The notes under the pieces are model-generated. The model did no database searches, was not told the DNA's origin, and saw only the letters and a list, made by a program, of their open reading frames with translations. A stretch of DNA of 64,000 bases from an uncultured Bacilli bacterium (GTDB taxonomy: Bacteria; Bacillota_I; Bacilli_A; RF39; UBA660), in contig CAKOLT010000001.1 in the NCBI GenBank assembly GCA_934096315.1, positions 43,412-107,411 on the forward strand. The letters are read 5' to 3'. Position numbers and translations under genes: made by a program. Below, piece by piece: positions 1 through 63,639 of the stretch; within the stretch, counting starts at the first letter, position 1; the number at the start of each line of letters is the position of its first letter.

Positions 1-192
1 TCTTTTTTAGAAACATCTTGAATTTTTAATCTATTTTCTTCTAAATATTTAATATAACAAGTAGCATCATATACATAAGACAATATAGAATTTCTTAACA
101 TTGTTTTCTCTACTTGTAAATAAAGATAATATTTCTCTAGTATATCTTTATTTACTGAAATCTTAATTTTTTCAAACACATTATCTGGCATT
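1..192 (-). CDS. Tyrosine recombinase XerC/XerD-like, N-terminal part (gene runs off the window start)
   Basis: Minus-strand ORF with ATG at revcomp 190-192 preceded by SD GAGTAGGTGGGG. N-terminus MPDNVFEKIKISVNKDILEKYYLYLQVEKTMLRNSILSYVYDATCYIKYLEE fits the XerD/RipX core-binding domain pattern (YL.VE...S.NT..SY..D...Y..FL). Confidence 0.5.
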
Positions 193-294
193 AACCCCAC
201 CTACTCTTAAACATATTATAACAAAAATAACTAACTTTTTCCAGTATTATTGACAATTTTACAAAAATTAATTATTATTATTATGGTGATATAT

Positions 295-1500
295 ATGAAT
301 GAGCCATTAGCAGTTAAACTAAGACCAAACAAACTAGAAGATATCATAGGTCAAACCCATTTAATCGGAGACGGTAAAATACTATCAAACTTAGTTAATA
401 ATAAAAAAATATTTTCAATGATTTTATATGGAAACCCTGGAATTGGTAAAACTACCATTGCACTAGCAATAGCAAATGAATTAGGATTTAATTATAGATG
501 TCTTAATGCTGTTATTAACAATAAAAAAGAATTTGACATAGTAGTAGAAGAAGCAAAAATGTACAATGGACTAATCCTAATTATGGATGAAATACATAGA
601 CTAAATAAAGATAAACAAGATTTACTTCTTCCTCTTTTAGAAAGCGGTTTAATAACATTAATTGGTATGACAACCTCTAATCCCTATCATAGTATAAATC
701 CCGCTATCAGAAGTAGATGCAGATTATTAAAATTAGAAGAATTAACTATTGAAAATATTGAAGATGGTATTAAAAGAGCTACAGAAAGCAAATATTTGAA
801 AGATATCAAAATAAATGATGAAACGATTAAATACATTGCCTCAATATCATCAGGAGACCTAAGATATGCATATAACCTTCTAGAAACAGCATACTATTCC
901 GTCAAAGATAAAAAAATAGATATTGAATTAATAAAAGAAATAGATAGTACACCAAATATATATCATGACAAAGATGGTGATAATTATTATGATTTATTAA
1001 GTGCCCTGCAAAAGTCCATAAGAGGAAGTGACGTAAATGCTTCTATATATTATTTAGCAAGACTAATTGAAGGAGGAGAACTAGAATCTATATGCCGAAG
1101 ATTATCTGTAATTGTATATGAAGATATAGGGCTAGCAAACCCAAGTATGGGGCCTAAAGTAATGAGTGCTATAGCAGCCTCAGAAAGATTAGGATTTCCT
1201 GAAGCAAGAATACCGTTATCAGCAGTAGTCATAGAAATGGCATTATCCCCTAAAAGTAATTCTGCTGAAGCTGCAATGGATATGGCATTAAACACAATAA
1301 GAAATGGTGGCAGTTATCCCGTTCCATCACATATAAAAACTAATAGCCCTAAATACAAATATCCCCATAATTATAAAAACAGTTATGTAAAACAAGATTA
1401 TTTACCCCAAAAATTACTAGGAAGTAAATTTTATATACCAAGAGAAAATCTAAATGAAAAAAAGCTAAAAGCTATAATGGATAATATAGAAAAATACTAG
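295..1500 (+). CDS. rarA: Replication-associated recombination protein A (RarA/MgsA), AAA+ ATPase
   Basis: Walker A GNPGIGKTT, LRP..L.D..GQ.HL N-terminus, Walker B IMDEIHR, conserved C-terminal MgsA domain. Likely start is ATG 295 (MNEPLAVKLRP), downstream of TTGACA-17-TATTAT at 251-285. Confidence 0.85.
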   Translation: MNEPLAVKLRPNKLEDIIGQTHLIGDGKILSNLVNNKKIFSMILYGNPGIGKTTIALAIANELGFNYRCLNAVINNKKEFDIVVEEAKMYNGLILIMDEIHRLNKDKQDLLLPLLESGLITLIGMTTSNPYHSINPAIRSRCRLLKLEELTIENIEDGIKRATESKYLKDIKINDETIKYIASISSGDLRYAYNLLETAYYSVKDKKIDIELIKEIDSTPNIYHDKDGDNYYDLLSALQKSIRGSDVNASIYYLARLIEGGELESICRRLSVIVYEDIGLANPSMGPKVMSAIAASERLGFPEARIPLSAVVIEMALSPKSNSAEAAMDMALNTIRNGGSYPVPSHIKTNSPKYKYPHNYKNSYVKQDYLPQKLLGSKFYIPRENLNEKKLKAIMDNIEKY

Positions 1501-2174
1501 AAATCTTCTAGTATTTTTCTAATTATATAGCTTGCACAAATATTACCCGCAACAACAGGCATATAACTTATAGAACTTATATTCCCAGAAACTTTTTTTG
1601 CAGGCTCATCACTACAAAGTACCATTACTTTTTCCTTAATATTACTATCTTTAACATATTTCCTAATTATTTTAGCAATAGGATCATAACTAGTATCCCT
1701 AATATCACAAATCTTAAACTTTAAAGGATCTAATTTATTACCAGTACCCATACATGATATAAATGGTATAGATCTTTTTAGACATTCACGTATTATACAT
1801 TTCTTTGTATTAATACTATCACAAGCATCAATTAAATAATCAAAAGAAATAGAAAAAAGCTCATCAATATTATTTTCATCCAAAAAAATATTTAATTTTA
1901 CAACATTACAATTACTAATACTCTTAATTCTCATCTCTTCTTCATCCGTCTTCTTATTTCCAATGTTCTCCTTAGTAGTTAATATTTGCCTGTTTAAATT
2001 AGAAATATCAATTATATCAAAATCAACTATTACAACATTTCCAATTCCTCCCCTTACTAAAGCCTCAGTGCAAGATGATCCAACTCCTCCTAACCCAATT
2101 ACAGCAACAGTTTTTGAAGATAACTTATCATAATTACTCATTCCTATTAATTTAATTAACCTGTCATACATCAT
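1497..2174 (-). CDS. ThiF/MoeB-family E1-like protein (tRNA threonylcarbamoyladenosine dehydratase TcdA-like)
   Basis: Nucleotide-binding VAVIGLGGVGS motif with ThiF-family architecture and size (~225 aa). Confidence 0.55.
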   Translation of the reverse strand: MMYDRLIKLIGMSNYDKLSSKTVAVIGLGGVGSSCTEALVRGGIGNVVIVDFDIIDISNLNRQILTTKENIGNKKTDEEEMRIKSISNCNVVKLNIFLDENNIDELFSISFDYLIDACDSINTKKCIIRECLKRSIPFISCMGTGNKLDPLKFKICDIRDTSYDPIAKIIRKYVKDSNIKEKVMVLCSDEPAKKVSGNISSISYMPVVAGNICASYIIRKILEDF

Positions 2175-2204
2175 TATTCCTTCTTTCCTATATAATACTT
2201 AAAA

Positions 2205-2240
2205 TTATAAAAAACTAGTAGCATAATCTTCTACTAGTAT
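2205..2240 (-). terminator. Rho-independent terminator between ttcA and the ThiF-like gene
   Basis: Minus-strand ACTAGTAGaagattatgCTACTAGT stem followed by TTTTTT. Confidence 0.5.
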
Positions 2241-2547
2241 TAATCATAGTTACCAGAGAAACGACTCTTTGATATAAAACCCGCGCGTAAATCACACAGG
2301 TGGGTAATCACATTACTTTAATTAGGATCCTTATTATGAATAAGTTTTCAACACATAAAATAAATTAGATTCCCTATATATATCTTTAGTCGGTTTTAAA
2401 TGAAGATATCGTAATCTCTAGTAACTTAATTATATCACCAATTAATTATCAATAAACATAATTAACCACAAAGTAACAATATTACTCTATAATTACCAAA
2501 AATGTATATACGATTGACAATAATTTAAAATCCCTCTTAATTATAAA

Positions 2548-3309
2548 TTACTCTTTCTCTCTTGTAGTATTTTTATTAACATTAAACATTGAATTAAAAA
2601 TATTAATATCTGCATTACCATACATATCAACCAGTTTTTCCACAAGTTTTTTTACTTCAAGACGTTTACCACTTTTCTTTTTAGTAACACTACAAGCACA
2701 ATCCAAAAATTCAATTTCTGCATGTTTAGCAAAAGAAATAATATCCTTTTCTTTTACATAGAAAAGTGGTCTAATTAGTTGCATGTTCTCAAAATTATCA
2801 CTATCTAAAATAGGAAGCATACCAGAAAAAGTTCCATTATAAATTTGGTTAAGAAGAATCGTCTCTATTACATCATTAAAATGATGACCTAAAGCAATTT
2901 TATTACAACCAAGTTTTTTACCCATATTATATAAAGCTCCCCTTCTCATTCTTGCACATAAATAACAAGGATTGCTGTTACCTTTAACAATTTCAAAGAT
3001 ATTAGAACTAAAAATGTTTATTGGTATATTTAAATGTTCTGCAATCATCTTAATATTCTCTAATTTATCTGGAGCATATCCAGGATCCATCACAATAAAT
3101 TTAACATCAAAATTAAACTTATTATGTCTCTTTAATTCCTGCATACACTTTGCTAAAAGAAAACTATCTTTACCACCACTAATACAAACCCCAATAACAT
3201 CATTTTCTTTAATAAGATCAAAATCTTTAACAGCTCTTATAAATTTTGAATAAATCTCCTTCCTATATTTTTTAATTATTGATCTTTCAATCTCTACTAA
3301 ATTTTTCAT
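2548..3309 (-). CDS. ttcA: tRNA 2-thiocytidine biosynthesis protein TtcA (PP-loop ATPase)
   Basis: PP-loop SGGKDS motif, ~250 aa, conserved Cys residues typical of the TtcA family. Confidence 0.7.
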   Translation of the reverse strand: MKNLVEIERSIIKKYRKEIYSKFIRAVKDFDLIKENDVIGVCISGGKDSFLLAKCMQELKRHNKFNFDVKFIVMDPGYAPDKLENIKMIAEHLNIPINIFSSNIFEIVKGNSNPCYLCARMRRGALYNMGKKLGCNKIALGHHFNDVIETILLNQIYNGTFSGMLPILDSDNFENMQLIRPLFYVKEKDIISFAKHAEIEFLDCACSVTKKKSGKRLEVKKLVEKLVDMYGNADINIFNSMFNVNKNTTREKE

Positions 3310-5684
3310 TAACTACTCCTCAAGCTAGCACCAATATTCTTCTCTACATCATCAATAATTTTATTAAATACTTCCATTACCTCTTTCTCTGTCAAAGTCC
3401 TATCTGGATTATTAAATGTAAGCGAATAAGCAATAGATTTATTCAATGGACCAATATTATCACCACGATATATATCAAATACCGTAATATCAGTTAATAA
3501 TCTACCTCCACTTTTACGAATAACACTTTCAATTTCTCCACTAGTAACATTTTCATTAACTACAAAGGAAACATCTTTAACAATATTTGGATATTTACTT
3601 GGAGCCTTATATTTAATATTTTTTACATTCTGTATTAATGAGTTTAAAGAAAATTCACAAACATAAATTTCATCTTTATTTATAAGAGGATGCAGTCTTC
3701 CAATGACCCCAATAAATTTTTTATCTAAATATATTTTGCATGAAATGTAAGGGTGTAGTCCTTTAATATCATTAACCGCTTCATAGGAGTATCTATTCCT
3801 AAATCCCATATAATTCATAACACTTTCAAAAATACCCTTAAGTAAATAAAAATCACAAGATATATTTTGACAAAGAGCACTATTCTTCATATAATTACCC
3901 TTAATTAACATTGAAACTTTCATATCCTCATTAAAACTACTATCATAAGTTTTACTAATTTCATATATACAAACATCGTTAACTCCCCTTGCTTTATTAT
4001 AGTCATAGACATTTAAAAGTGAAGAAATTAAAGAACTCCGAATAATAGATTTATCATTACTCATAGGATTCGGTAATAAAATATTTTGTACATTAAAATA
4101 ATTAAACTCTTCCGCCATTTTAGGAGACACTAACGTATAAGTTCTTACCTCATTAAGACCAAGACTTTTCAATCTTGAAGAAACCTTTTTTTGATACCAC
4201 ACATCATCAAGATATACACCCTTTTTAGTATCTACCCTTGGTAATGTAGATTTTAAATTATCATAACCATAAAGTCTACCAATTTCCTCTGCTATATCAT
4301 TAATATTCGCTTCAATATCAAGCCTCCTATTTGGAATAGTAACTGTAAAACTATTACCCTCTAGCTTATATGGAAAACCTAATCTATTTATCTCATATTC
4401 CATATCACATGTATCAATAACAATTCCTAAAAGTTTATTTACTTCATCAGTTGTAAAATTAACAATTTTCTCTTCTTTATTTACATTATCATATATAACT
4501 GTTCCCTCTAAAACTGTAGCAGACGCATATTTTTCAAGAAGTTGACAACATCTTTCAATAGCCATCTCTGTATACTCATAATTAAGTCCCTTTCCATATC
4601 TAATAGATGCTTCACTCTTTAAATTAAGTCTACTTGCTGTACTTCTTATATTAAAAGGATCAAATATTGCACTCTCAATAAAAATACATTTAGTATCATC
4701 TGTAATTGAAGTATCAAGTCCTCCCATAACCCCTGCTATACAAACACTCTTACTACCATCTGTAATGACAATATCATTAACGTTTAAAATTCTATTCTGT
4801 CCATCTAATGTAACAATTTCCTCATTATCATAAGCCTCTCTAACACAAATATTATCTCCAAGTTTATCCTTGTCAAAAAAATGTAAAGGCTGTCCAAACT
4901 CAAGCATAACATAATTAGAAATGTCAACAACATTATTAATAGATCTTATCCCCACACTTGTAAGTCTATTCTTAATAAAATCAGGAGACTCACCAATTTT
5001 AACATTTTTAACCATTTTGCCAAGATAATATGAACATTTATCAGTTTCTACACGTATATTCATGTAGTTTTTAACATTATCACTAATTGGATGTGTATCA
5101 ATAACAGGCATATTTACTTTCTTATTAATAATAGCCCCCACTTCATAAGCAAACCCAATATGATAATAACAATCATTATTTCTATGTTTATGGACATCTA
5201 ACTCATATAAAACATTTAAAACATTCATATAAACAAGTGGATTAACCCCTAAAGGAGCATTATCATCTAGTATATATATACCTTTCTCATGATTAGCAGG
5301 AGTATCTTCTTCTAATCCTATTTCTGATAAAGCACATATCATTCCTTGTGATTCAATTCCCCTAATCTTAGACTTCTTAATAGTTATATCCCCAGGTAAT
5401 GTACATCCAACCAAAGCTACAATTACCTTTATTCCCTCTACCACATTAGGAGCACCGCACACAATTTGTAATTTTTCACTACCATTATCTACAGTGCATA
5501 CATGTAAATGATCAGAATCAGGATGTTTACTACAGCTAATTACCTTCCCTATAACAAGATTTTCAATATTATTTGAGATAACTTTTTCAACATTAACTCC
5601 CGCTTCAGTTATCTTTTCTGCAAGTACTTTAGGGTCAATATCTTTAATATCTATATAATCATTTAACCATTCTAAATTAATCAT
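3309..5684 (-). CDS. pheT: Phenylalanine--tRNA ligase beta subunit
   Basis: 791 aa with tRNA-binding, B3/B4, B5 and FDX-ACB domain pattern. Lies immediately downstream of pheS. Confidence 0.9.
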   Translation of the reverse strand: MINLEWLNDYIDIKDIDPKVLAEKITEAGVNVEKVISNNIENLVIGKVISCSKHPDSDHLHVCTVDNGSEKLQIVCGAPNVVEGIKVIVALVGCTLPGDITIKKSKIRGIESQGMICALSEIGLEEDTPANHEKGIYILDDNAPLGVNPLVYMNVLNVLYELDVHKHRNNDCYYHIGFAYEVGAIINKKVNMPVIDTHPISDNVKNYMNIRVETDKCSYYLGKMVKNVKIGESPDFIKNRLTSVGIRSINNVVDISNYVMLEFGQPLHFFDKDKLGDNICVREAYDNEEIVTLDGQNRILNVNDIVITDGSKSVCIAGVMGGLDTSITDDTKCIFIESAIFDPFNIRSTASRLNLKSEASIRYGKGLNYEYTEMAIERCCQLLEKYASATVLEGTVIYDNVNKEEKIVNFTTDEVNKLLGIVIDTCDMEYEINRLGFPYKLEGNSFTVTIPNRRLDIEANINDIAEEIGRLYGYDNLKSTLPRVDTKKGVYLDDVWYQKKVSSRLKSLGLNEVRTYTLVSPKMAEEFNYFNVQNILLPNPMSNDKSIIRSSLISSLLNVYDYNKARGVNDVCIYEISKTYDSSFNEDMKVSMLIKGNYMKNSALCQNISCDFYLLKGIFESVMNYMGFRNRYSYEAVNDIKGLHPYISCKIYLDKKFIGVIGRLHPLINKDEIYVCEFSLNSLIQNVKNIKYKAPSKYPNIVKDVSFVVNENVTSGEIESVIRKSGGRLLTDITVFDIYRGDNIGPLNKSIAYSLTFNNPDRTLTEKEVMEVFNKIIDDVEKNIGASLRSS

Positions 5685-45297: not shown

Positions 45298-46799
45298 TTA
45301 TCCTTTAGAAACCGTGTATGGATTATCAATAGTGCCATCTCCTTCGGTTATTATTACATCTGGTTTTAGGGAGAAGACTGGCCAAACCGAACGCCAATAG
45401 TAGACGAGGTAGAAGTCGGGGACGACGATGCCTGTCGTGGAGACAACGAACGCAGTGTCAGTGTAGGACGAGAGAGGGAACAATAGCCACTGATAACTTG
45501 AATTGAATAGCCAATCACTATTCTTACAACTAGTATCATAATCTTTTAAATTAGTTCCATTAACACAAGTAGTCCCTGCTGCATATCCATAATCTGATGT
45601 ATACATTAAGGCTACTTTCCCTTCCCAATAATATGGTCTATTCTCATCATATCTTCCACTATTATTTCCTGTTTTTGTTCTTTCGTATGTATACAGGTGG
45701 TTGTTGTTATTGATGTTGAATTATGTCCTGCTAAATAATATCTAGAATCTCCAATCATCCTTTTAGCAGTACTACTTAATTTGTAATTAGTAAAGTCTAC
45801 ATCTCTTACACTTTGATTAATATAGTCAGGCATCTTCCCTGTATTAGTTGTATCACTCCACCAGATACCACTATTAAGCATAATCATAAGAGAGCTACCA
45901 CTAGTGGTACTATTACTATAGTTATTAGTTATATTATTTCTTGTCTCTGTTGGGGTTGCCCAGATATTTGTATATGTTCCATCTGACTTCATATCCCATG
46001 CAAAGGTATTTACTGTACCATCAGTAAGAACAGTTGCCTTTATTACCTTTAACCTATTGACTCCCTCTAACTCATCATATATACTACCAATAATTCTATA
46101 TAAATGCTTATCTGGACATGTCGTACTACCCTCAAAATCTAGACATACATAGTTATCAGGATTAGCCCCATAATACCTATAATCATCTACTGCAGGTATT
46201 TTCTCTCCAGTTACACTATCAGTTGCACTTATCTCATCATGATGTACCTTATACACTCCACTACCTGAGTCACCATTAGTTCCATCATCTAATGATTCTA
46301 TATATTCATTTGCAGGAATTACCTCTTCAGGTATCATCACCTTCCCACTAGCTAAAGTAAGTTCTCCCCCTTTAACATAACCTGCTAAAGCCCCTAGATT
46401 AACTTTAACTTCACTAGAAGAAGTATTACTAACTTCTATAGTTAAAGTTATATTACTTTCTTTATTAGCTATACCACTAGATTTATTCTTACTTCTCTTC
46501 TTATATACTATACTAAACTCTTCTGGTTTAGTAGTAGGACTAACCATCTCATAATAAATAACATAACTTATCTTCGCAGGATTAGGGTTATACATTACTA
46601 CATCATAATACCTAGTCTCGTTAGGTTCCACTACTAACTGTTTAATACTACTATTACCTATTTGAAATGTATAATCTAAATCCGTTGTACTTAGGGTATT
46701 CTCTACTACACTAGTATCATAAGCAAGTGTCCTATAAAGGGCAAATACCGTAAATGAAGTTAACACAATTAATAATACTATTACTACTCTTTTTATCAT
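45298..46799 (-). pseudogene. Secreted paralog-family protein A, split by a frameshift near 45690-45715 (402-aa and 102-aa ORFs are one gene)
   Basis: The 402-aa ORF ends out of frame (..TTTTCIHT). The other frame continues YTYERTKTGNNSGRYDENRPYYWEGKVALMYTSDYGYAAGTTC, matching paralogs B/C. Central ~200 aa nearly identical to paralog C. True start MIKRVV after GAAGGGAG. Confidence 0.6.
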
Positions 46800-46822: not shown

Positions 46823-46872
46823 AAAAAGACTATGACAAACTAGAATACTCCTGTATTCTTACTGTCATAGTC
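46823..46872 (-). promoter_or_regulatory. Conserved terminator-like leader hairpin ~20 nt upstream of the paralog A RBS
   Basis: mRNA sense GACUAUGACAguaagaauacaggaguauucuaguuUGUCAUAGUC then UUUUU. Almost identical element at 54356-54408 ahead of paralog C. Confidence 0.5.
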
Positions 46873-46918
46873 TTTAATTCTTATACTATTTTTCTTATTT
46901 TTATTTAATTGGCTGTAA

Positions 46919-47010
46919 ACAGCCTTATGTGCCCATAAAAATTATGTGCCCATTATTAAATAAAAGCCTGAAAAATGGGCTTTTTTTTATTTTTTATGTT
47001 CGCATAATAG
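46919..47010 (+). repeat. Repeat module R1 (~92 bp): aacagccTTATGTGCCCAT x2 ... hairpin ... half-palindrome GTTCGCATAA. Inverted copy at 47461-47555
   Basis: Reverse complement of 47461-47555 aligns along its whole length except the central hairpin. Ends in half-site atGTTCGCATAAtag. Confidence 0.7.
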
Positions 47011-47139
47011 TTTGGTTAATTTTTGTATTTTTTCTCAAAAATACCTCTATCTCTAATATTTCTTTTTTGGTATTTTTATTTTCAAACTTTTATTTATTCT
47101 ATTTTTTTCTAATATTTCTTTTTTCTTTCCAAAAAAAAC

Positions 47140-47437
47140 CCTCATTTATATTTCTGTGGTTGTCAGGTTTTTATATTCAAATAATTCTTTTATTACAGTT
47201 AATGAAAAACCATCATCAATTAAATAAAATCCCTTATAATGCCTTATTATATGGCTAATACAAGAATTTCCTTATATGATTAAACCTCCATTTCTGTGTA
47301 TCATAACTGATACCTAATTTAAATAAATATTTGGCATATTGATTATACACACTATATATATGTTTACTGTAACTATAATTCTTAGTTACTAAATAATTTT
47401 GTGAAAACATAAATATCAATCCTCCTTTTATTTTCAC
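47140..47437 (-). pseudogene. Decayed tyrosine recombinase/integrase gene (N-terminal ~50 aa intact, then frameshifted, then truncated)
   Basis: After strong SD AAAGGAGGA: MFSQNYLVTKNYSYSKHIYSVYNQYAKYLFKLGISYDTQKWRFNHIRKFLY* fits the integrase SAM-like N-domain (S.NT..SY..D...Y..FL). Another frame continues ..RHYKGFYLIDDGFSLTVIKELFEYKNLTTTEI*. No catalytic domain remains. Confidence 0.4.
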
Positions 47438-47460
47438 AAAATAATAATATCACATAATTT

Positions 47461-47582
47461 ATTATGCGAACATAAAAAAAGAAAAAAGCCCAGAAAATGA
47501 GCTTATTTTTAATAATGGGCACATAATTTTTATGGGCACATAAGGTGCATTATGCGAACGTTCGCATAAACAGCCCCCCCCA
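47461..47582 (-). repeat. Repeat module R2 (inverted copy of R1) plus full palindromic core site S1 and C8 tract
   Basis: Begins with half-site TTATGCGAAC. At 47550-47569 the perfect 20-bp palindrome TTATGCGAACGTTCGCATAA flanked by ggtgcat / aacagcc. Followed by CCCCCCCC and aaacaaaTGTTCGtATTA. Confidence 0.7.
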
Positions 47583-47782
47583 AACAAATGTTCGTATTAA
47601 TGATTTTCCTTTAAAATATTTATTCATGAGGGGCTCCTTTCTTAATATATTTTGACTCCGTCAAAATATATTTCTTTCTTTACTATCCATATTTTACCAC
47701 ATATTTATATTCTCTTCAAGTACTTTTCTAATTTTTTTTTACAAGTATATATAATATTTTCGATTATATGAATTTTATCAAT

Positions 47783-49540: not shown

Positions 49541-49724
49541 ATAACACCTCTCAATACTAATTTTAGCAGATAATACCATTAAAGTCTATAGTTATAAGGG
49601 TAAAATTTTAAAATATAATCGATGTAAAGATTAACTATAAAAACTTAAATAAATTTTAGTCAAGTTAGATGAATTTTTAAGAATTTATAGTATAATAGTG
49701 TTATATAACATTAGGAGGTACTTT

Positions 49725-50753
49725 ATGAATAATGAATTAATTAGTAATGATAATAAATTTAATAATTTTTTTAATAATATAAAAGATTTAGTTATCACTA
49801 GTAGGAATAAAGTTTATCAAACAGTTAATACAGAAATGCTTAATCTATATTGGAATATAGGAAAAATAATTATGGAAATACAGCAAGGTGATGAAAGAGC
49901 AAGTTATGGAGATGCTATATTAGATAAATTGTCTATTAAACTAACTAATGAATTCGGTAAGGGATTTTCTTCAAGAAATTTAAGAACTATGAGAAAATTC
50001 TATTTAATGTATCCAAATTGGAAGACAGTGTCTGCCAAATTAAGTTGGTCTCATTATTTAGAACTTATTAAAATAGAAGAAAAACCTAAAAGAAACTTTT
50101 ATTTAAATGAATGTATAAACTCTAAATGGAGTGTTAGAGAATTGCAAAGACAAAGAGATTCACTACTTTATGAAAGATTAACTATATCTGCTGACAAAGA
50201 AAAAATACTTGAGCTATCCGAAAAAGGACAAATCTTAAAAACTAGCAAAGATTTAATAAAAGATCCATTCGTACTAGAGTTTTTAGATATAAAAGAAAAC
50301 ACAAATTATCTTGAAAACGACTTAGAAAAAAACATTATAGAACACTTAAAAGAATTCTTATTAGAATTAGGAAAAGGTTTTAGTTATGTTGGAAACCAAG
50401 TTAGACTCACTTTAGAAGAAGATCATTTTTACCCAGATTTAGTTTTTTATAATAGACTTTTAAGATGCTTTGTTATTATTGATTTAAAAATAGGAAAAGT
50501 ATCCCATCAAGACATTGGACAAATGCAAATGTATGTTAACTACTATGATAGAGAAATTAAACAAGATGATGAAAATAAAACAATTGGAATATTGTTATCA
50601 ACTAATAAAAATGAAACCATTGTAAAATATACCTTACCAGAAGATAATAAAACAATATTTTCTACTGAATATAAATTGCATATGCCAACAGAACAAGAAC
50701 TAATTAATGCCATTGAAGAAGAAAAGAAAAACTTTGATTTAAATAAAAATTAA
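49725..50753 (+). CDS. DUF1016/YhcG-family PD-(D/E)XK nuclease-like protein
   Basis: N-terminal YhcG_N-like region (LYWNIGKIIMEIQQGDERASYGDAILDKLSIKLTNEFGKGFSSRNLRTMRKFY). C-terminal D..(V/I)IDLK motif (EDHFYPDLVFYN...VIIDLKIGK). Start MNNELI after AGGAGG. Confidence 0.65.
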   Translation: MNNELISNDNKFNNFFNNIKDLVITSRNKVYQTVNTEMLNLYWNIGKIIMEIQQGDERASYGDAILDKLSIKLTNEFGKGFSSRNLRTMRKFYLMYPNWKTVSAKLSWSHYLELIKIEEKPKRNFYLNECINSKWSVRELQRQRDSLLYERLTISADKEKILELSEKGQILKTSKDLIKDPFVLEFLDIKENTNYLENDLEKNIIEHLKEFLLELGKGFSYVGNQVRLTLEEDHFYPDLVFYNRLLRCFVIIDLKIGKVSHQDIGQMQMYVNYYDREIKQDDENKTIGILLSTNKNETIVKYTLPEDNKTIFSTEYKLHMPTEQELINAIEEEKKNFDLNKN

Positions 50754-50820: not shown

Positions 50821-52734
50821 TCATGATAGGACATAAGGATTATCAACAGAACCTATACCACCATTAATCATAACATCTGATTTTAAATAGAAAGTAGGAA
50901 AGACTTTAAACGTAGTATTATAATAGTCACTACTACCAATACCTCCGGTTGTTAAAATTGCATATGCAGTAATAGCATTAGAATTAGCAGGAGATATTAC
51001 CCAATTAGATCCATTTCCTATAAGCCATCCTTTTTTACTACATTCTTTACTCATATTTTTGTTATATAAATCAAGTGAATAACAAACATTTCCTATAGTA
51101 TATCCATAATCTGACGCATACATTAAAGCTACTTTTCCATCCCAGTAGTATGATCTATCAGAATCATATCTTCCACTTCTAGTGCCTAGTTTAGTCCTTT
51201 CCCTAGTATAATATGCATGTGCAGTACTAGTCCCAGTTCCCTCAATAGAACTTAAATAAAACCTACTAGTGGCAATTAATGCTTTAACCTTATCACTAAT
51301 TTTATATTCATCCAAACCAAAGTTTACAGTCTTAGTTTGCATTCCTCCATCATAATAATATATAATACCCTCTGTTCCATTCCACCATAAACCCTTAGAA
51401 CTATCTTCTGAATTTAACATCTGCATTAATGTACTACCACTTTCAGTACCCGCTATTTCTGTCGCATTAGAGTATCCAGTTGCAGTATCTGTTACTGGTG
51501 CCCAGATATTTTTTCTTGAAGGATAATCAAAATTAGCTGTAGTCCAGTTCCAAGCAAAACTATCTATTACTTCATTATTAGAATCACTAACCTTAAGGGA
51601 AGTCGCTTTAACCACCCTTAACTTATAACTATTAGATAAATCCTCCCAGATAATACCTATTATCCTATATAAATGCTTATCTGGACAAGACTCACTACTT
51701 TCCATATCTAAACATATATAATTATCAGGACTATCCCCATAATATCTATAATCATCTACCGCTGGTATTACATTCCCAGTAACACTATCAGCACTACTAA
51801 TTTCATCATGATGTACTTTATATACTCCACTACCTACATTACCCCCACTACCATCATCTAACTTCTTAATATACTCTATTAAACCTGGACTAACCCATTC
51901 ATACTTAGCAATATTACTACTACCTGCAGTTATATTTAATATCTTTGTATCATTACTACCAACCTTAATATTAGACCCCTCTACTGTATAACTATCATCT
52001 TTAGTTAATGTAAAACTACCACTTGCAATAACAGTATTACTACTGTTTTTTACTTCCACAGTATGCTCTCCTAAAGGAACATTTACTAAAGTATAATTAC
52101 CACTAGAATCAGTAGTAGTAGTTATTGGATCACTATGTACAGTAATTAAAGCATTAGGTATTGGGTTATTACTACTATCAAGAAGAGTACCCCTTATAGT
52201 ATAACTATCTATAACTAGTGCATTTTCTCCACTAGCCCCAAGAATAAAATTAAATGTTTTACCACCCATATTACTAGGATTATCCATATTACCATCAATA
52301 TAAATATATATAGTATACTTACTAGTAGTATCCTTAGTTAATGTAGTAGTATCTAAAAGTGTATACACTTTATTAGTAGTAGCACTACTAAAATCTCCCT
52401 CATTAATAAGAGTATCCCCCTGATATAATTTCCATACAAAAGAACTATGTTTTAACTCTTCACTAATACTAACTACCTTTAAAGTTAGTTTAGCAGTAAC
52501 TCCACTACATTCAGGGGTCATACTTACTTCCTTAGAAATAACATTACTAGTATCATCTTTACTAAAAGAAGGACCAAAACTTTGTCCAATTATATCCGTT
52601 CCATCATTATAAGTAATATTACATCCCTCAATATTAAATGTAACATTAGTATTACTACTACTCCATCTTAGATAAGCATAAGTGCCTCCAAGAGATAACA
52701 TAATAATTAATATTAATAATATTTTTCTTTTCAT
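50821..52734 (-). CDS. Secreted paralog-family protein B (637 aa; carries a carboxypeptidase-regulatory-like/Cna-B-type insert)
   Basis: Signal/anchor MKRKILLILIIMLSLGGTYAYLRW. Conserved core GSGVYKVHHDEIS..DSVTG.VIPAVDDYRYYG..PDNY.CLD.E.S..CPDKHLYRIIG. C-terminal SDYGY..G..C...DNPY module shared with A and C. Confidence 0.7.
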   Translation of the reverse strand: MKRKILLILIIMLSLGGTYAYLRWSSSNTNVTFNIEGCNITYNDGTDIIGQSFGPSFSKDDTSNVISKEVSMTPECSGVTAKLTLKVVSISEELKHSSFVWKLYQGDTLINEGDFSSATTNKVYTLLDTTTLTKDTTSKYTIYIYIDGNMDNPSNMGGKTFNFILGASGENALVIDSYTIRGTLLDSSNNPIPNALITVHSDPITTTTDSSGNYTLVNVPLGEHTVEVKNSSNTVIASGSFTLTKDDSYTVEGSNIKVGSNDTKILNITAGSSNIAKYEWVSPGLIEYIKKLDDGSGGNVGSGVYKVHHDEISSADSVTGNVIPAVDDYRYYGDSPDNYICLDMESSESCPDKHLYRIIGIIWEDLSNSYKLRVVKATSLKVSDSNNEVIDSFAWNWTTANFDYPSRKNIWAPVTDTATGYSNATEIAGTESGSTLMQMLNSEDSSKGLWWNGTEGIIYYYDGGMQTKTVNFGLDEYKISDKVKALIATSRFYLSSIEGTGTSTAHAYYTRERTKLGTRSGRYDSDRSYYWDGKVALMYASDYGYTIGNVCYSLDLYNKNMSKECSKKGWLIGNGSNWVISPANSNAITAYAILTTGGIGSSDYYNTTFKVFPTFYLKSDVMINGGIGSVDNPYVLS

Positions 52735-54332
52735 CTATTATACACCATCCCTTCACCACTGCTAAATATTACGTCAGATTTCAGACTAAAGACTGGACGG
52801 ACCGCACCCTCGACGCTGACGTCGTCGTAGCTGCCGTTGATGGTGCCCTCCGGAATGACGCCCCACGCACCAAAAGGGTATGCAGTGCGGGGAGACTGTA
52901 ACCATTCCCATCCTTTTGGTGTTAACCAGTCTTTTTTATAACACTCATTATTATGATAATTAAGTGCTTCTTTTTGACATGTATTTCCTGCTGCGAATAC
53001 ATAATCTGATGGATACATTAGTCCTACATTTCCTTCCCAATATAATGGTCTGTTTTCATCATACCTTGTAGGTATGCTATCACTTCTTACTCCTGTCCTC
53101 TCCATTTTATATGTTGTGAATCCATTCTTATTGCCATTTCCCGGATGTGCTTCCGCTAAATAATATCTAGAGTCCCCGATCATACTTTTAACAGTACTAC
53201 TTAACTTATAATTAGTAAAGTCTACATCTCTTCCACTTTGGTTATCCCTATCATATACCTTCCCTATATTAGTAGTATCACTACACCAAATACCACTATT
53301 AAGCATTATCATAAGTGAGCTACCACTAGCAAGTGTATTACTATAGTTATTAGTTATATTATTTCTTGTCTCTGTTGGTGTTGCCCATATATTTGCTTTT
53401 GTTCCATCTGACTTCATATCCCATGCAAAGGTATTTACTGTACCATCAGTAAGAACAGTTGCCTTTATAACCTTTAACCTATTTGTCCCCTCTAACTCAT
53501 CATAAATACTACCTATTATCCTATATAAATGTTTATCTGGGCACGCAGTACTACCTTCAAAATCTAAACACACATAGTTATCAGGATTAGCCCCATAGTA
53601 TCTATAATCATCTACCGCAGGTATTACTCCCCCAGTTACACTATCAGTACTACTTATCTCATCATGATGTACTTTATATACTCCACTACCTGAGTCACCA
53701 TTACTTCCATCGTCTAAACTCTCGACAACATCAACTGCAGGAAATCTTCCCAAAGCAGAGTTAGTCCCCTCTACTGTTAGAGTAAAATCAAAACTCTGAT
53801 TCTGCATATTACTATCATTCTCATTATTACCATCTATCCATAGATATAGTATATATTTACTTAGAGTAGTAGTTAACTTCTTATTACTATCTGTACTATC
53901 ACTAGATAAAGTTACTAACTCTATTACATCACTACTACTCTTACCATTAAAAGTACCTTCACTTACTACAGTAGTATCCTTAACTAGTGTCCATTTAAAG
54001 TCTGATACTGCTAGATACTGACTTATTTCATTAATATTTAACTTAATATTAACTGTAGCTGGATCAGTTACATCATCTTTTAATTTAAGTTTAATACTCT
54101 TCTTTATAGCATCCACACTACTATAGCCTGAAGCTGGCACTAAATTAGCTCCCGTTATATCAGCTCCATCATCAAGCTGCAATATTGCCCCAGATACTGT
54201 AAAACTAATATTAGTATTCTGCATACTATTCCATATAAAATACCCAAAAGCAACACTAATTCCTGTAAGTACTGTAGCAATTAGTACTGATACTACTGCT
54301 AATTTTGGGGTTATCTTCTTATTTTCTTCCAT
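52731..54332 (-). CDS. Secreted paralog-family protein C (533 aa)
   Basis: Signal/anchor ..AVVSVLIATVLTGISVAFGYFIW. Central 200 aa ~95% identical to paralog A at protein and DNA level. N-terminal region (NTNISFTVSGAILQLDDG) resembles the SipW-type/TasA-camelysin mature N-terminus. Confidence 0.7.
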   Translation of the reverse strand: MEENKKITPKLAVVSVLIATVLTGISVAFGYFIWNSMQNTNISFTVSGAILQLDDGADITGANLVPASGYSSVDAIKKSIKLKLKDDVTDPATVNIKLNINEISQYLAVSDFKWTLVKDTTVVSEGTFNGKSSSDVIELVTLSSDSTDSNKKLTTTLSKYILYLWIDGNNENDSNMQNQSFDFTLTVEGTNSALGRFPAVDVVESLDDGSNGDSGSGVYKVHHDEISSTDSVTGGVIPAVDDYRYYGANPDNYVCLDFEGSTACPDKHLYRIIGSIYDELEGTNRLKVIKATVLTDGTVNTFAWDMKSDGTKANIWATPTETRNNITNNYSNTLASGSSLMIMLNSGIWCSDTTNIGKVYDRDNQSGRDVDFTNYKLSSTVKSMIGDSRYYLAEAHPGNGNKNGFTTYKMERTGVRSDSIPTRYDENRPLYWEGNVGLMYPSDYVFAAGNTCQKEALNYHNNECYKKDWLTPKGWEWLQSPRTAYPFGAWGVIPEGTINGSYDDVSVEGAVRPVFSLKSDVIFSSGEGMVYNR

Positions 54333-54355: not shown

Positions 54356-54408
54356 ATAAAAAGACTATGACAAACTAAAATACCCTTGTATTCTTACTGT
54401 CATAGTCT
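54356..54408 (-). promoter_or_regulatory. Conserved terminator-like leader hairpin upstream of the paralog C RBS (second copy)
   Basis: GACUAUGACAguaagaauacaaggguauuuuaguuUGUCAUAGUC then UUUUU, ~25 nt before GAGAGGAAG SD. Confidence 0.5.
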
Positions 54409-54444: not shown

Positions 54445-54515
54445 ATTATATTAATGGGCACATAAGGCTGTTTATGCGAACGTTCGCATAATGCACCCCC
54501 CAACAAATGTTCGCA
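54445..54515. repeat. Repeat module R3 with palindromic core site S2, in opposite orientation to S1
   Basis: taATGGGCACATAAGG ggctgtt TTATGCGAACGTTCGCATAA(54472-54491) atgcacc CCCCCC aacaaaTGTTCGCATTAT. The 34-bp core with arms is the exact reverse complement of the S1 core. Outer flanks are direct. Confidence 0.7.
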
Positions 54516-54625
54516 TTATAGATTTTTTTGGAGATTCTATATCCATTTTACCCATTATTTCTCTATTTATATTATATAAATTTAACATATAAAATCACCA
54601 AAAATCCTTTCTTATTCTTTTACTA

Positions 54626-60934: not shown

Positions 60935-61864
60935 TTAGAATAAATTTGACTTGATAGCATTTATTTCTGATAGGCTTAGTTTAGTTACTTCTGATATATC
61001 TTTCTCTGGGTATCCTTTTTTGAGTAAGTTTTTTGTTATTTCTACTTTTTCAGTTTTCTTTCCACGTTTTTCACCACGTTTTTCACCACGTTTTTCACCA
61101 CGTTTTTCACCAATCTCAATACATTCAGAACGCGTAGTTGCTAGTTCCATCTCACGTTCTTCCTCTGCAGATATACAGGCTAAATACGCCTCATCATTAT
61201 TTTTGTCCTTCATTATTTTTAAAAGTCTATCAATATTCACTTTTTTTATTCCTCCCTTCTTTAACAATTTTCTTATTTCATTCAAATTAGTACAAGCAAA
61301 CATAGCTCCGATAAAAATCCTTTTATCAATACTATAACTGCCATCATCACTGATATAATTATATACCTTTTTCTTACATTTTGCAACATCTAAATTCAAT
61401 GTTGAAAAATTTTTAAGCAAATCTTCTTGTGTTAATGTGTTTTTCTTAACATAGAAGGCTATGGCATTCTTGATATTCGATCTACCATTTATATTAACTT
61501 GATATAAATGGTAGTTTTTCATATCAGTGTAATTAACACAGTGATTAGAGATATAGTAAAAAATAGCGTACAGATATTTTTCATTCCTATATCTCTTATA
61601 ATCTGTGTAGCCATCTTTATTGACTTCACAGTTTATATACACCGTGTCATTTACTTTTAGTATGATATCGCATATCGATTTATCATCGCCTAAGTTTTGC
61701 TTTATGAGTTCTGAATTTAAAACTTCGACTTTATCTTCATAATTAAAATCTAGTCCTAAAAGAGAACACAAAAGATTAGCTAAAATCTTAGGCTCCTCTA
61801 AAAAGATATGCTTAAAAGAATTATCATATAGTAAACTCTTAATTTCCACATCTTGCTCCGTCAT
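60935..61864 (-). CDS. Rpn-family (YhgA-like) recombination-promoting PD-(D/E)XK nuclease with C-terminal DUF4351 domain
   Basis: N-terminus MTEQDVEIKSLLYDNSFKHIFLEEPKILANLLCSLLGLD after AGAAGGAGGTGA SD. C-terminus EKRGEKRGEKRGEKRGKK..ITKNLLKKGYPEKDISEVTKLSLSEINAIKSNLF. Confidence 0.65.
   Translation of the reverse strand: MTEQDVEIKSLLYDNSFKHIFLEEPKILANLLCSLLGLDFNYEDKVEVLNSELIKQNLGDDKSICDIILKVNDTVYINCEVNKDGYTDYKRYRNEKYLYAIFYYISNHCVNYTDMKNYHLYQVNINGRSNIKNAIAFYVKKNTLTQEDLLKNFSTLNLDVAKCKKKVYNYISDDGSYSIDKRIFIGAMFACTNLNEIRKLLKKGGIKKVNIDRLLKIMKDKNNDEAYLACISAEEEREMELATTRSECIEIGEKRGEKRGEKRGEKRGKKTEKVEITKNLLKKGYPEKDISEVTKLSLSEINAIKSNLF
61063..61113 (-). repeat. In-frame 12-bp tandem repeat (x4, encodes EKRG) inside Rpn gene 1
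   Basis: ccacgtttttca repeated four times on the plus strand. Paralog 2 has a different repeat count and composition. Confidence 0.7.
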
Positions 61865-62030
61865 GTTACTCACCTCCTTCTGAGAATAACTACCCTCACT
61901 ATAATATCTCCAAAGTGAGGTCAAAAATTCCCCCCTGTGTCTGAATTATTACCATAGATTATGCAATTATTACCAAAAATAGTGTAAAGTAAGTGTAAAG
62001 TAAGGTATTTTTGACAAAAAAAGACTATAC
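61865..62030 (-). promoter_or_regulatory. Conserved ~165-bp promoter/leader shared by the Rpn paralogs (second copy 63429-63595)
   Basis: Sense strand TTGACC-15-TATAGT. The -10 region is embedded in the inverted repeat CCTCACT-N13-AGTGAGG. The two copies are >90% identical. Confidence 0.45.
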
Positions 62031-62486: not shown

Positions 62487-63428
62487 TTAAAATAAATTTA
62501 ACTTGATAGCATTTATTTCTGATAGGCTTAGTTTGGTTACTTTTGATATTGCTTTCTCTGGATATCCCTCTTTAAGTAAGTTTTTTGTTATTTCTACTTT
62601 TTCGCTTTTTTTCCCACGTTCTTCACCACGTTTCTCTCCAATAGCGATTCCACGTTCTTCGCCACGTTTCTCACCTTTGTACAAAGCCTCAGACTCTGTA
62701 AATGCTAGCTCTCTCTTATGTTCTTCTTCTGCTGATATAATACCTAAATATTCATCATTTTTATTCTTTTCTTTTATTATTTTTAAAATTTTATCAATGT
62801 TCACTTTCTTTATTCCTCCTTTCTTCAATAATTCTCTTATCTTTTCTAAATTAGTAAATCCAAACATAGCTCCTAAATAGACTCTTTTGTCAGGACACTC
62901 TATGATACTGTCATTGGTATAATTATATACCATTTCTTTACATTTTGCAACATTTACGTTTAAATTAACCAAATTTTTTAAAAGTGGTTCTTTTGTAGAT
63001 ATATTTTCTTTGATGTATATGGATATAGCATCACTAATTCCCGAAGTACCATTAATATTTACTTGATATAGCTTGTAATTAGCCATATCTTCATACTTCT
63101 TAGAATGGTTACAGAGATGATTATAAATACTGTTAAAGTACTTCTCATTTCTGTATCTTTTATAATCTGTGTAGCCCTCTTTGTTGACTTCACAGTTTAT
63201 AAAAGTTTTATCATTAATCTTGAGAACTATATCACATATTAGTTTGTCGTCCTTTAGGAATTCTTTAATTAACTCTGAGTTGTTTATTTCTACGGTGTAA
63301 TTATAATCAAAGTCTATCCCTAAAAGAATACATAAAATATTTGCTAATATTTTGGGTTCCTCCAAAAGAATATGCTTAAAAGAATTATCATATAGTAAAC
63401 TCTTAATCTCAACATCTTGCTCCGTCAT
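62487..63428 (-). CDS. Rpn-family (YhgA-like) PD-(D/E)XK nuclease with DUF4351 tail, paralog 2
   Basis: ~75% identical to paralog 1. Same SD/start context. C-terminus ..EKRGEERGIAIGEKRGEERGKK..ITKNLLKEGYPEKAISKVTKLSLSEINAIKLNLF. Confidence 0.65.
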   Translation of the reverse strand: MTEQDVEIKSLLYDNSFKHILLEEPKILANILCILLGIDFDYNYTVEINNSELIKEFLKDDKLICDIVLKINDKTFINCEVNKEGYTDYKRYRNEKYFNSIYNHLCNHSKKYEDMANYKLYQVNINGTSGISDAISIYIKENISTKEPLLKNLVNLNVNVAKCKEMVYNYTNDSIIECPDKRVYLGAMFGFTNLEKIRELLKKGGIKKVNIDKILKIIKEKNKNDEYLGIISAEEEHKRELAFTESEALYKGEKRGEERGIAIGEKRGEERGKKSEKVEITKNLLKEGYPEKAISKVTKLSLSEINAIKLNLF

Positions 63429-63639
63429 GCTACTCACCTCCTTCTGAGAATAACTACCCTCACTATAATATCTCCAAAGTGAGACCAAAAATTCCCCCCT
63501 GTGTCTGAATTATTACCATAGATTATGAAATTATTACCGAAAATGGTGTCAAGTAAGTGTAAAGTAAAGGGTTTTTGACAAAAAAAGACTATACCGCATA
63601 CTTGGTATAGTTCTTCATAAAATTGAGTTAATTTTCATA

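Follow-up and report, generated by a model that had tools for sequence, protein, structure and literature searches.

Palindromic sites in the leaders of two surface-protein genes are probably the ends of a decayed RIT-type transposon

The stretch of 64 kb analysed here (the window) carries two copies of a perfect 20-bp palindrome, each in the leader of a surface-protein gene. The blocks around these copies, S1 and S2, are probably recombination sites from the ends of a decayed transposon of the recombinase-in-trio (RIT) type, which is non-autonomous and was inserted in opposite orientations before the two genes. RIT elements are transposons with the gene order ritA-ritB-ritC (Van Houdt 2009/2012; Ricker 2013). 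The closest relatives of S1 and S2 appear to be the ends of such transposons and not chromosomal dif sites. This reading is built on a site grammar that is also found next to recombinase trios elsewhere, on a filled and an empty version of the same type of leader, on recombinase stubs within the insert at S1 and on the pattern of hexamers at the two loci.

Two mirrored palindrome blocks in paralogous leaders

The window is a housekeeping stretch from the low-GC (~28%) chromosome of a spore-forming Firmicute, in which nearly all genes lie on the minus strand. In the direction of the genes, ftsA-ftsZ is followed by S2, gene X, gene Y, yhcG (on the opposite strand), ddl-ruvA, S1 with an inverted-repeat region, gene Z and radC. 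Genes X, Y (637 aa, next to gene X) and Z code for paralogous N-terminally anchored proteins that belong to a large unnamed family with >1,600 relatives; gene Z is a pseudogene consisting of two ORFs (Table 1). Both palindromes are located in paralogous 5' leaders, those of genes X and Z. In these leaders a promoter and then a short hairpin precede a small leader ORF; next come the poly-G tract, the palindrome block and, just before the ribosome-binding site, a long hairpin with a T-run. An Rfam search over both leaders, using gathering and E-value thresholds, returned no relevant RNA family.

The first-pass annotation of this DNA had described the palindrome as present in opposite orientations at two loci within co-linear outer flanks, and both parts of this description are accurate. 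The 32-nt blocks, made up of the palindrome TTATGCGAACGTTCGCATAA and its 6-bp flanks, are 100% reverse-complementary to each other, although the start of S1 and the end of S2 had each been placed one base off. To the left of both blocks the sequence reads ATGGGCACATAA, and to the right a C-run (8 nt at S1 versus 6 nt at S2) is followed by A(A)ACAAATGTTCG; the right flank is co-linear because the leaders are paralogous. The extra direct half-sites that had been pointed out close to the blocks do exist as sequences (47589-97, TGTTCGTAT, with one mismatch, and 54508-16, TGTTCGCAT), but a role as recombination half-sites is not borne out: leaders without the palindrome (L033, L034) also carry them, and they are therefore native leader sequence.

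Within the window, the 18-mer TATGCGAACGTTCGCATA is present in exactly 2 copies (47551-68 and 54473-90), and it was matched in 0 of 100 dinucleotide-preserving shuffles. The same S1/S2 structure was recovered from several independent metagenome assemblies (L023, L028-L030, L035, L038), and hence it is not an assembly artefact. A ubiquitous REP-like element, the possibility raised in the first-pass annotation against its own reading, is not what is seen here: REP/BIME repeats occur as many scattered intergenic copies, whereas the window has 2 copies in 64 kb, both in paralogous leaders, and the scan of species genomes described below gave no site with these flanks.

Table 1. Coordinates of the features discussed in the text (positions in the window)
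Feature	Position	Strand	Remarks
S1, terminal palindromic repeat	47544..47575		GGTGCA 47544-49 / palindrome 47550-69 / ACAGCC 47570-75
S2, S1 block flipped	54466..54497		GGCTGT 54466-71 / palindrome 54472-91 / TGCACC 54492-97
Two 11-nt arms TTATGTGCCCA, 6 nt between	47516..47543 (47533-43, 47516-26)	-	outer arms of S1 site
Mirrored pair of TTATGTGCCCA arms, far end of insert	46925..46952 (46925-35, 46942-52)	+	45-nt inverted repeat, 96%
Single TTATGTGCCCA arm left beside S2	54455..54465	-	forms CGTTCGCATAA-ACAGCC-TTATGTGCCCA
651-bp insertion in gene Z leader (element plus one 9-bp repeat copy)	46925..47575	-	distance between two GGCTGTTTA copies
9-bp direct repeat TAAACAGCC, left copy	46916..46924		6-bp overlap ACAGCC/GGCTGT plus TAA
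9-bp direct repeat TAAACAGCC, right copy	47567..47575
Small native leader palindrome GGCTGT-AA-ACAGCC, far junction	46911..46924		target hexamer pair without 20-mer; L033 has GCTGTTTACAGCC there
Left long inverted-repeat arm	46925..47031	+	terminator-like hairpin 46962-84, inner half-site 46998-47007
Right long inverted-repeat arm	47438..47543	-	terminator-like hairpin 47504-47486, inner half-site 47462-71
51-aa ORF, N-terminal stub of RitA-like tyrosine recombinase	47258..47410	-	matches P0123
Frame-shifted C-terminal stub SHIIRHYKGF...TTTEI	47149..47256	-	PF00589 positions 129-164, E 0.0014
Poly-G tract, leader A (C8 on + strand)	47574..47581	-	directly upstream of target hexamer; length varies between assemblies
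Poly-G tract, leader B (C6 on + strand)	54496..54501	-
Gene X, intact surface-protein paralogue downstream of S2, 533 aa	52731..54332	-
Gene Z, surface-protein paralogue downstream of insertion, split	45612..46799; remainder 45298-45606	-
N-terminus of 303-aa XerD/XerC-type recombinase gene	3..191	-	runs off window; candidate host enzyme

A dif-like 11-6-11 site architecture

The S1/S2 palindrome is, judged by its layout, a tyrosine-recombinase site, and the idea of such a site in the first-pass annotation is largely supported by the parse given here and by the recombinase genes that adjoin similar sites elsewhere. The core of 7-6-7 bp (TTATGCG AACGTT CGCATAA) that had been proposed is, however, not the best parse. 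The palindrome consists of two 11-nt Xer-type arms CGTTCGCATAA placed head to head with the central CG in common, and each of these arms is followed by a 6-bp central region and an 11-nt TTATG arm. What had been read as asymmetric 7-bp arms corresponds to the central (overlap) regions, 6 bp each, of two 11-6-11 sites that stand back to back. The core site is CGTTCGCATAA-TGCACC-TTATGTGCCCA at S1 and CGTTCGCATAA-ACAGCC-TTATGTGCCCA at S2, and on the element side of S1 there are two 11-nt TTATG arms, 6 nt apart. Also, the combination CATAA-N6-TTATG was observed 4 times in the window against an expectation of 0.2, and both S1 and S2 have the arms of ~11 bp, the ..CATAA / TTATG.. dyad and the centre of 6-8 bp that characterize dif-type sites.

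Based on this architecture, it could be argued that the host chromosomal Xer recombinases use the sites and that the insert at S1 is an IMEX-like or dif-module-like passenger, a view that we consider unlikely. The palindrome half is identical to published XerC arms: for instance, CGTTCGCATAA-GATATA-TTATGGAACGT is a published site with a XerC-binding arm of the same sequence (PMC10132070), and nnTTCGCATAA-TGTATA-TTATGTTAAAT is the sequence of many dif sites (PMC2731167). The XerD arm begins with TTATGT, as does the second arm here, the N-terminus of a 303-aa XerD/XerC-type gene lies inside the window at its left edge, and small modules flanked by Xer sites are known from Acinetobacter, where they are called pdif modules (PMC10132070, PMC9947245); in the 11-6-11 layout the sites also resemble those of IMEX such as the CTX phage. 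However, the second arm has GCCCA in its outer half, unlike the well-conserved TAAAT of XerD arms, so that TTATGTGCCCA agrees with the consensus TTATGTTAAAT (dif of E. coli and B. subtilis, PMC3025954) at 6/11 positions. Furthermore, the GC skew is negative and monotonic over the whole window, which places the sites away from the terminus, and the site is present twice, at a distance of 6.9 kb. Xer sites also differ from S1 in that the latter has extra arms at fixed spacing, in a multi-arm register that is specifically common to RIT ends, and in that the insert contains stubs of a RitA-like recombinase, which the element once had as its own.

The same register at the ends of RIT elements

The 18-mer TATGCGAACGTTCGCATA was scanned against 185,579 species genomes (GTDB), and 0 of the 22 matches had the flanks of S1/S2. 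TTATG is found six bases past the palindrome in one of them only (L015), and a metagenome scan with the pattern palindrome-N6-TTATG identified three loci (L039, L040, L041). All four of these sites from outside the organism adjoin tandem tyrosine-recombinase genes, which form recombinase trios in three cases (L015, L039, L040), while in L041 the site sits between two recombinase genes. In L039, the trio is complete (425 + 307 + 367 aa) and the site is present at both ends. In L015, the site borders an insertion that splits an IS110 transposase gene and is followed by three tandem tyrosine-recombinase genes. The outer hexamer of this site is in-frame coding sequence of the interrupted transposase gene; it is therefore derived from the target, and the palindrome from the element.

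When aligned, the four sites and S1 have a common register of flank, hexamer, palindrome, hexamer, 11-nt TTATG arm, 6 nt and a further 11-nt TTATG arm. Although the search pattern did not include the second TTATG arm, all aligned sites have it, S1 among them. Outer and inner hexamers complement each other in L015, in L040 and at the left end of L039, but not in L041 or in the window. RIT elements have a size of ~3.5 kb, also occur in Firmicutes and carry an inverted repeat with an overlapping palindrome flanking ritA and ritC (PMC3414803); their ends have also been described as 47-51-bp palindromic repeats (PMC5737581), and their recombinases are Xer-related 'simple' tyrosine recombinases (PMC8138268). 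The counterparts of these terminal inverted repeats and overlapping palindromes at S1 are the identical 20-mer in the same register and the long inverted repeats of the insert. A RIT trio, that is, three adjacent and slightly overlapping ritA/ritB/ritC genes, is absent from the 64-kb window, and a Pfam search on nearly all window ORFs identified no recombinase besides the Xer stub at the left edge. A short-query blastn search with the RIT end against plasmids gave chance matches only, and the palindrome core was not found in viral contigs.

Matches to the 18-mer are also seen in quite different surroundings. In many of the 22 genome matches its neighbours are regulator genes of the LacI family (Massilia/Pseudoduganella, Chloroflexota) or sugar-oxidoreductase genes (GFO/IDH/MocA type, in Cohnella), and an AACGTT centre is typical of LacI operators. 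In those other phyla the 18-mer is, by its gene context, a LacI-type operator. Since both S1 and S2 are located in gene leaders, the palindrome could in principle be the operator of a LacI-family (or similar dimeric helix-turn-helix) repressor of the surface-protein genes, but we regard this as very unlikely: no LacI-family gene lies within the window, no regulator or sugar-utilisation gene accompanies the sites, and the site is missing from the homologous leaders L025, L032, L033 and L034. The arm grammar is not present in the LacI-associated matches, and the fixed-spacing TTATG arms of this recombinase-type setting, the 651-bp insertion, the swapped hexamers and the recombinase stubs would all be left unexplained.

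Filled and empty leaders

Palindrome-free leaders related to those of genes X and Z were found by exact-protein look-ups of homologues, and they fall into two types. The b-type leader (L033, from a gene whose protein is 71% identical) reads ...TTTGGGGGA-GCTGT-TTA-CAGCC-AATTAAAT..., with GGGGCTGTTTACAGCCAATT as the empty site, and the a-type leader (L034, L032, L025 (same species)) reads G11-12-GGTGCA-G(A)-TTATGCACC-CATTAA.... After the poly-G tract, element-free leaders have either GGTGCA (L025, L032, L034) or GCTGT (L033). Locus A, which contains S1, corresponds to a b-type leader with exactly 651 bp added between two copies of GGCTGTTTA (read as TAAACAGCC on the + strand), and removal of these 651 bp restores the L033 leader. 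The empty site comes from a relative, L033, and so from another strain; L025, the one variant from the same species, is without the insert but of a-type. Locus B, which contains S2, corresponds to an a-type leader with ~26 nt added, and its native TTATGCACCCA is altered to TTATGTGCCCA. In the direction of the genes, the sequence is polyG-GGCTGT-palindrome-TGCACC-... at locus A and polyG-GGTGCA-palindrome-ACAGCC-... at locus B. The outer hexamer at each locus is thus that of its own leader, and the inner one is the reverse complement of the hexamer found in the other leader.

The link to structural variation that the first-pass annotation had proposed is found in the form of insertion versus empty site. 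Possible signs of mobility are the two sites in paralogous leaders, the empty b-type leader of the relative and the missing insert in L025. The only other context of the insert is L035, where the junctions are identical, so that it does not count as an independent second full insertion. In that assembly, the identical insert is found behind a different promoter region and downstream of ABC-transporter genes, which points to recombination between leaders, or to a chimeric assembly, and not to a fresh insertion. Exact-protein look-ups with FtsZ, MgsA and P0005 for further strain variants of locus A found none on record, and the look-up with gene Z returned the identical context only. A metagenome scan with the conserved 20-mer of the 5'-UTR hairpin gave 0 matches, and this lineage is therefore missing from that metagenome collection.

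The orientation of segments between paired sites, for which differences between isolates had been envisaged, shows no polymorphism in any assembly. This bears on another alternative, according to which 46916-47575 is an active invertible phase-variation switch for gene Z (of the fimS / cwpV type) with S1 as one of its recombination sites. The long inverted repeats (45 nt at 96% and 50 nt at 78%) surround a centre of ~400 bp, which is located between a promoter and a surface-protein gene and has inward-facing terminators, all as might be expected of a switch. However, the segment has a single orientation in all assemblies that span it (L023, L035, L038), gene Z is a pseudogene, the flanking core sites differ in their central hexamer and there is no clear outward-facing promoter. 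We consider an active switch very unlikely.

Alternatively, replication errors of the fold-back or template-switch kind within a hypervariable poly-G leader, combined with gene conversion between paralogous leaders, could have generated the mirrored blocks without any enzyme-specific site. The length of the poly-G tract is variable, small native palindromes (GGTGCA..TGCACC, GGCTG..CAGCC) are already present at this position, and the leaders are recombinogenic, as seen in L035, where another promoter region precedes the same downstream sequence. Nevertheless, such errors leave unexplained why the identical 20-mer and arm register are found at RIT ends in unrelated phyla, and they account neither for the exact match to the XerC arm nor for the recombinase remnants in the insert, and we judge this explanation to have little probability.

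Recombinase remnants in the insert

In the insert at S1, each arm of the inverted repeats contains two TTATGTGCCCA arms, a hairpin and a half-site. With the insertion, a terminator-like hairpin has come to stand between the promoter and gene Z. When joined as a circle, the end region is predicted to fold into a single long hairpin (ΔG -81 kcal/mol). The attP site of the CTX phage is folded, and the two inverted sites here could likewise form a hairpin in which the central region stays unpaired.

The central part of the insert contains the remains of a recombinase gene. When 1.8 billion proteins were searched in full with HMMER, the 51-aa ORF matched the N-terminus of P0123 at E 6e-7, with 50% identity along 50 aa. 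P0123 is a tyrosine recombinase of 311 aa, complete in length, that scores best on the RitA profile built here, with 148 bits versus 109 for the host XerD as control. Together with P0127 and P0128 it is found on Logan contigs of at most 3.2 kb, nine of which carry P0123. The frame-shifted C-terminal stub covers the box II region of tyrosine recombinases, stops just short of the catalytic Tyr and is the top match of the RitC profile in the six-frame translated window. The RitA profile gave no signal on the 51-aa ORF, and a word-index homology search with the fused pseudogene peptide returned the exact 51-aa ORF only. A blastn search of the insert against phage and plasmid collections gave no match, and P0123 was not found in the viral scan. 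Because N-terminal and box II stubs are located at its centre, the insert is, as far as these remnants tell, what an internal deletion has left of an element that formerly encoded a RitA-like recombinase. With its own recombinase left only as stubs, any movement would now require an enzyme acting in trans.

A model for two insertions of one element

The arrangement of arms and hexamers can be accommodated in a model in which the end of the element comprises two mirrored 11-6-11 core sites, with GGTGCA and GGCTGT as overlaps. In the leaders, precisely these two hexamers come after the poly-G tract, one in each leader type. Strand exchange would take place across a 6-bp overlap common to element and target, as is usual for tyrosine recombinases, with the crossover lying within the hexamers. 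We hypothesize that the element passes through a circular two-site intermediate, for which the predicted junction is TGGGCACATAA-GGCTGT-palindrome-TGCACC-TTATGTGCCCA. Use of the GGCTGT site on the b-type leader of gene Z would then give S1 and a 651-bp insertion flanked by repeated GGCTGT(TTA). The expected product, polyG-GGCTGT-palindrome-TGCACC-arms...arms'-GGCTGT-TTACAGCC, is exactly as seen at locus A. Use of the GGTGCA site on the a-type leader of gene X, in the opposite orientation, would give polyG-GGTGCA-palindrome-ACAGCC-arm..., which is the retained part of locus B. Most of the copy at gene X would later have been lost by a deletion between TTATGTGCCCA of the element and the native TTATGCACCCA, which resembles it, so that S2 and one arm remain. 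Hence, a 32-bp block that looks flipped between co-linear flanks may have arisen because one element with two mirrored sites was inserted either way; the left flank would be the symmetric arm of the element itself and the right flank the paralogous leader.

Two features fit the model less well. The palindrome is present at one end of the element in the window versus both ends of the complete RIT element L039, and the a-type leaders read GGTGCA-G/GA-TTATG, so that their match to the element site is offset by 1-2 nt. A more specific version of the model is that of a recombinase-less mini-RIT with a single end in which two mirrored 11-6-11 cores share the palindrome, the choice of overlap sets the orientation of insertion and the loci are a record of integration. 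We put this version forward tentatively and think it may well not hold in full.

Other rearrangements were considered and rejected. The opposite orientation of the blocks is attributed here to two insertions of an element that is nearly palindromic, and not to an inversion of the 32-bp segment or of the 6.9 kb between S1 and S2. A reciprocal exchange between the two sites, or an inversion, does not fit, as an inversion would leave the hexamers unchanged and a deletion-type exchange would remove ddl-ruvA. Neither is needed, since a simple insertion into a leader of the L033 type accounts for locus A in full. A DDE-type MITE with a 9-bp target duplication was discarded because ends defined in this way are not inverted repeats.

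Comparison with known recombination systems

The likeness to RIT elements concerns the identical 20-bp palindrome and the register of the end (L015, L039, L040, L041), the inverted repeats and palindromes at the ends (PMC3414803, PMC5737581) and the RitA-like recombinase stub inside the insert. In contrast to the RIT elements described so far, the insert in the window measures 651 bp instead of ~3.5 kb, lacks the trio and has the palindrome at one end only. Its setting also differs, as it is found in a low-GC spore-forming gut Firmicute with a surface-protein leader as target, and one of the copies is a 26-bp solo site. Transposition of a RIT element has never been experimentally reproduced (PMC10214605). 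Analogies with telomere resolvases, IS200/IS605 elements and integron attC sites were dropped in view of the RIT association.

[quoted passage not shown] In Tn554 and SE, the 6-bp spacer between the terminal motifs travels with the element from its former insertion site to the new one (PMC10214605), and this spacer transfer is the best precedent for a locus that bears the hexamer of another target. These elements have other terminal motifs. Here, no TnpC/Srap-like gene is found and the target hexamer is duplicated at both junctions. In Tn554 and SE the spacer is deposited at one junction without target duplication; the inner hexamer is of the other type at both loci in the window, but the target hexamer is doubled at the 651-bp insert.

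Implications

RIT elements are widespread tyrosine-recombinase transposons, the ends of which are described only loosely in the literature consulted. The locus studied here and the four outside sites define a precise end grammar with dif-like arms that spans phyla, and the locus provides a pair of filled and empty targets with a duplicated hexamer. The pattern of swapped hexamers suggests where strands are exchanged and how the orientation is chosen. For annotation, the palindrome alone is not diagnostic, as the same 18-mer serves other bacteria as a LacI-type operator; the register of the flanking arms is. While the RIT class itself is already known, a miniature recombinase-less RIT-like derivative with a solo site in surface-protein leaders appears to be new.

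The locus also indicates that such elements can decay to small non-coding inserts and 26-bp solo sites that persist in the leaders of surface-protein genes, where they have probably silenced one of the gene copies. If the mini-RIT reading is true, it would offer a mechanistic model for RIT transposition, and it would imply the existence of mini-RITs, comparable to MITEs, with the poly-G leaders of variable surface-protein genes as their targets.

The palindrome in other genomes

A complete recombinase trio flanked at both ends by the palindrome is found in contig L039 (positions 1-3664). Its outer flanks are mutually reverse-complementary except for one base beside the palindrome, and this symmetry reflects either an assembly path that folded back on itself or a genuine inverted duplication where the recombinase-in-trio (RIT) element inserted. 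The same 20-mer lies within a 50-nt perfect palindrome in an uncultured Clostridium contig with 25% GC (L005, 4197-4246); TTATG arms are absent around it. In Massilia/Pseudoduganella and Chloroflexota the identical 18-mer, the core of the palindrome, adjoins genes for LacI-family regulators, and in Cohnella it adjoins genes for GFO/IDH/MocA oxidoreductases (loci L001, L002, L012, L013 and L014, and also L008 and L022). At these loci the 18-mer seems to serve as a conserved LacI-type operator, identical in sequence and unrelated in use.

Within the window itself, a tyrosine recombinase gene of the XerD/XerC type is present with its N-terminus (see table); the gene is complete in contig L042 and there encodes 303 aa. 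Two paralogous ORFs (60935-61924 and 62487-63488) weakly matched PDDEXK_2, the Rpn-like PD-(D/E)XK 'transposase' family. A YhcG-type PD-(D/E)XK nuclease gene (49698-50753), which runs on the opposite strand, is located between loci A and B.

Features of the two leaders, the surface-protein genes and the recombinase gene (window coordinates)
Feature	Position	Strand	Remarks
Poly-G tract, locus A	47574-47581		length 8; just upstream of S1
Poly-G tract, locus B	54496-54501		length 6; just upstream of S2
Small leader ORFs containing the poly-G tract	47553-47627; 54475-54546	-	
Long conserved hairpin, followed by T5	46826-46873 (gene Z); 54361-54408 (gene X)	-	
Gene Z	45612-46820		
Gene Y	50821-52734		
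Gene X	52731-54332		
XerD/XerC-type tyrosine recombinase gene, N-terminus	3-191	-	continues beyond left window edge

The surface-protein genes and their leaders

Genes X, Y and Z belong to a large family of N-terminally anchored proteins with more than 1,600 relatives, all from gut-type metagenomes. Most lack a Pfam domain, and a CarboxypepD_reg domain is present in gene Y alone. One relative adjoins a prepilin peptidase gene and small pilin-like ORFs (L033), and another adjoins a sortase gene (L034). Gene Z (45298-46799) is broken into two ORFs of 395 and 102 aa, which in an alignment with gene X cover its residues 197-393 and 439-530, respectively; downstream of the insertion, it is probably a pseudogene. 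The same leader and insert, together with the start of gene Z, are found downstream of ABC-transporter genes in another assembly (L035, 2850-3826), where the promoter part of the leader has diverged. Either leaders recombine, shifting gene cassettes between promoters, or this contig is a metagenome assembly chimera.

In the leaders of both gene Z and gene X, a long hairpin, GACTATGACAGTAAGAATACA...TGTCATAGTC TTTTT, directly precedes the ribosome-binding site; it matched no family in an Rfam search. The hairpin and its T5 run recur in the leaders of L025 (same species) and L032-L035, and it is probably a leader attenuator of this surface-protein gene family.

Variation in the poly-G tract

The small ORF containing the poly-G tract, annotated as a gene of 52 aa in L032, enters the terminator-like hairpin ahead of the main gene in one of the three frames. 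Elsewhere, the tract has a length of 9 (L023, L035 and L038), 11 (L025 and L034), 12 (L032) or 5 (L033), and it differs among otherwise near-identical assemblies when the window, L023, L025 and L032-L035 are compared. This variation looks like slipped-strand phase variation acting via translation-coupled attenuation.
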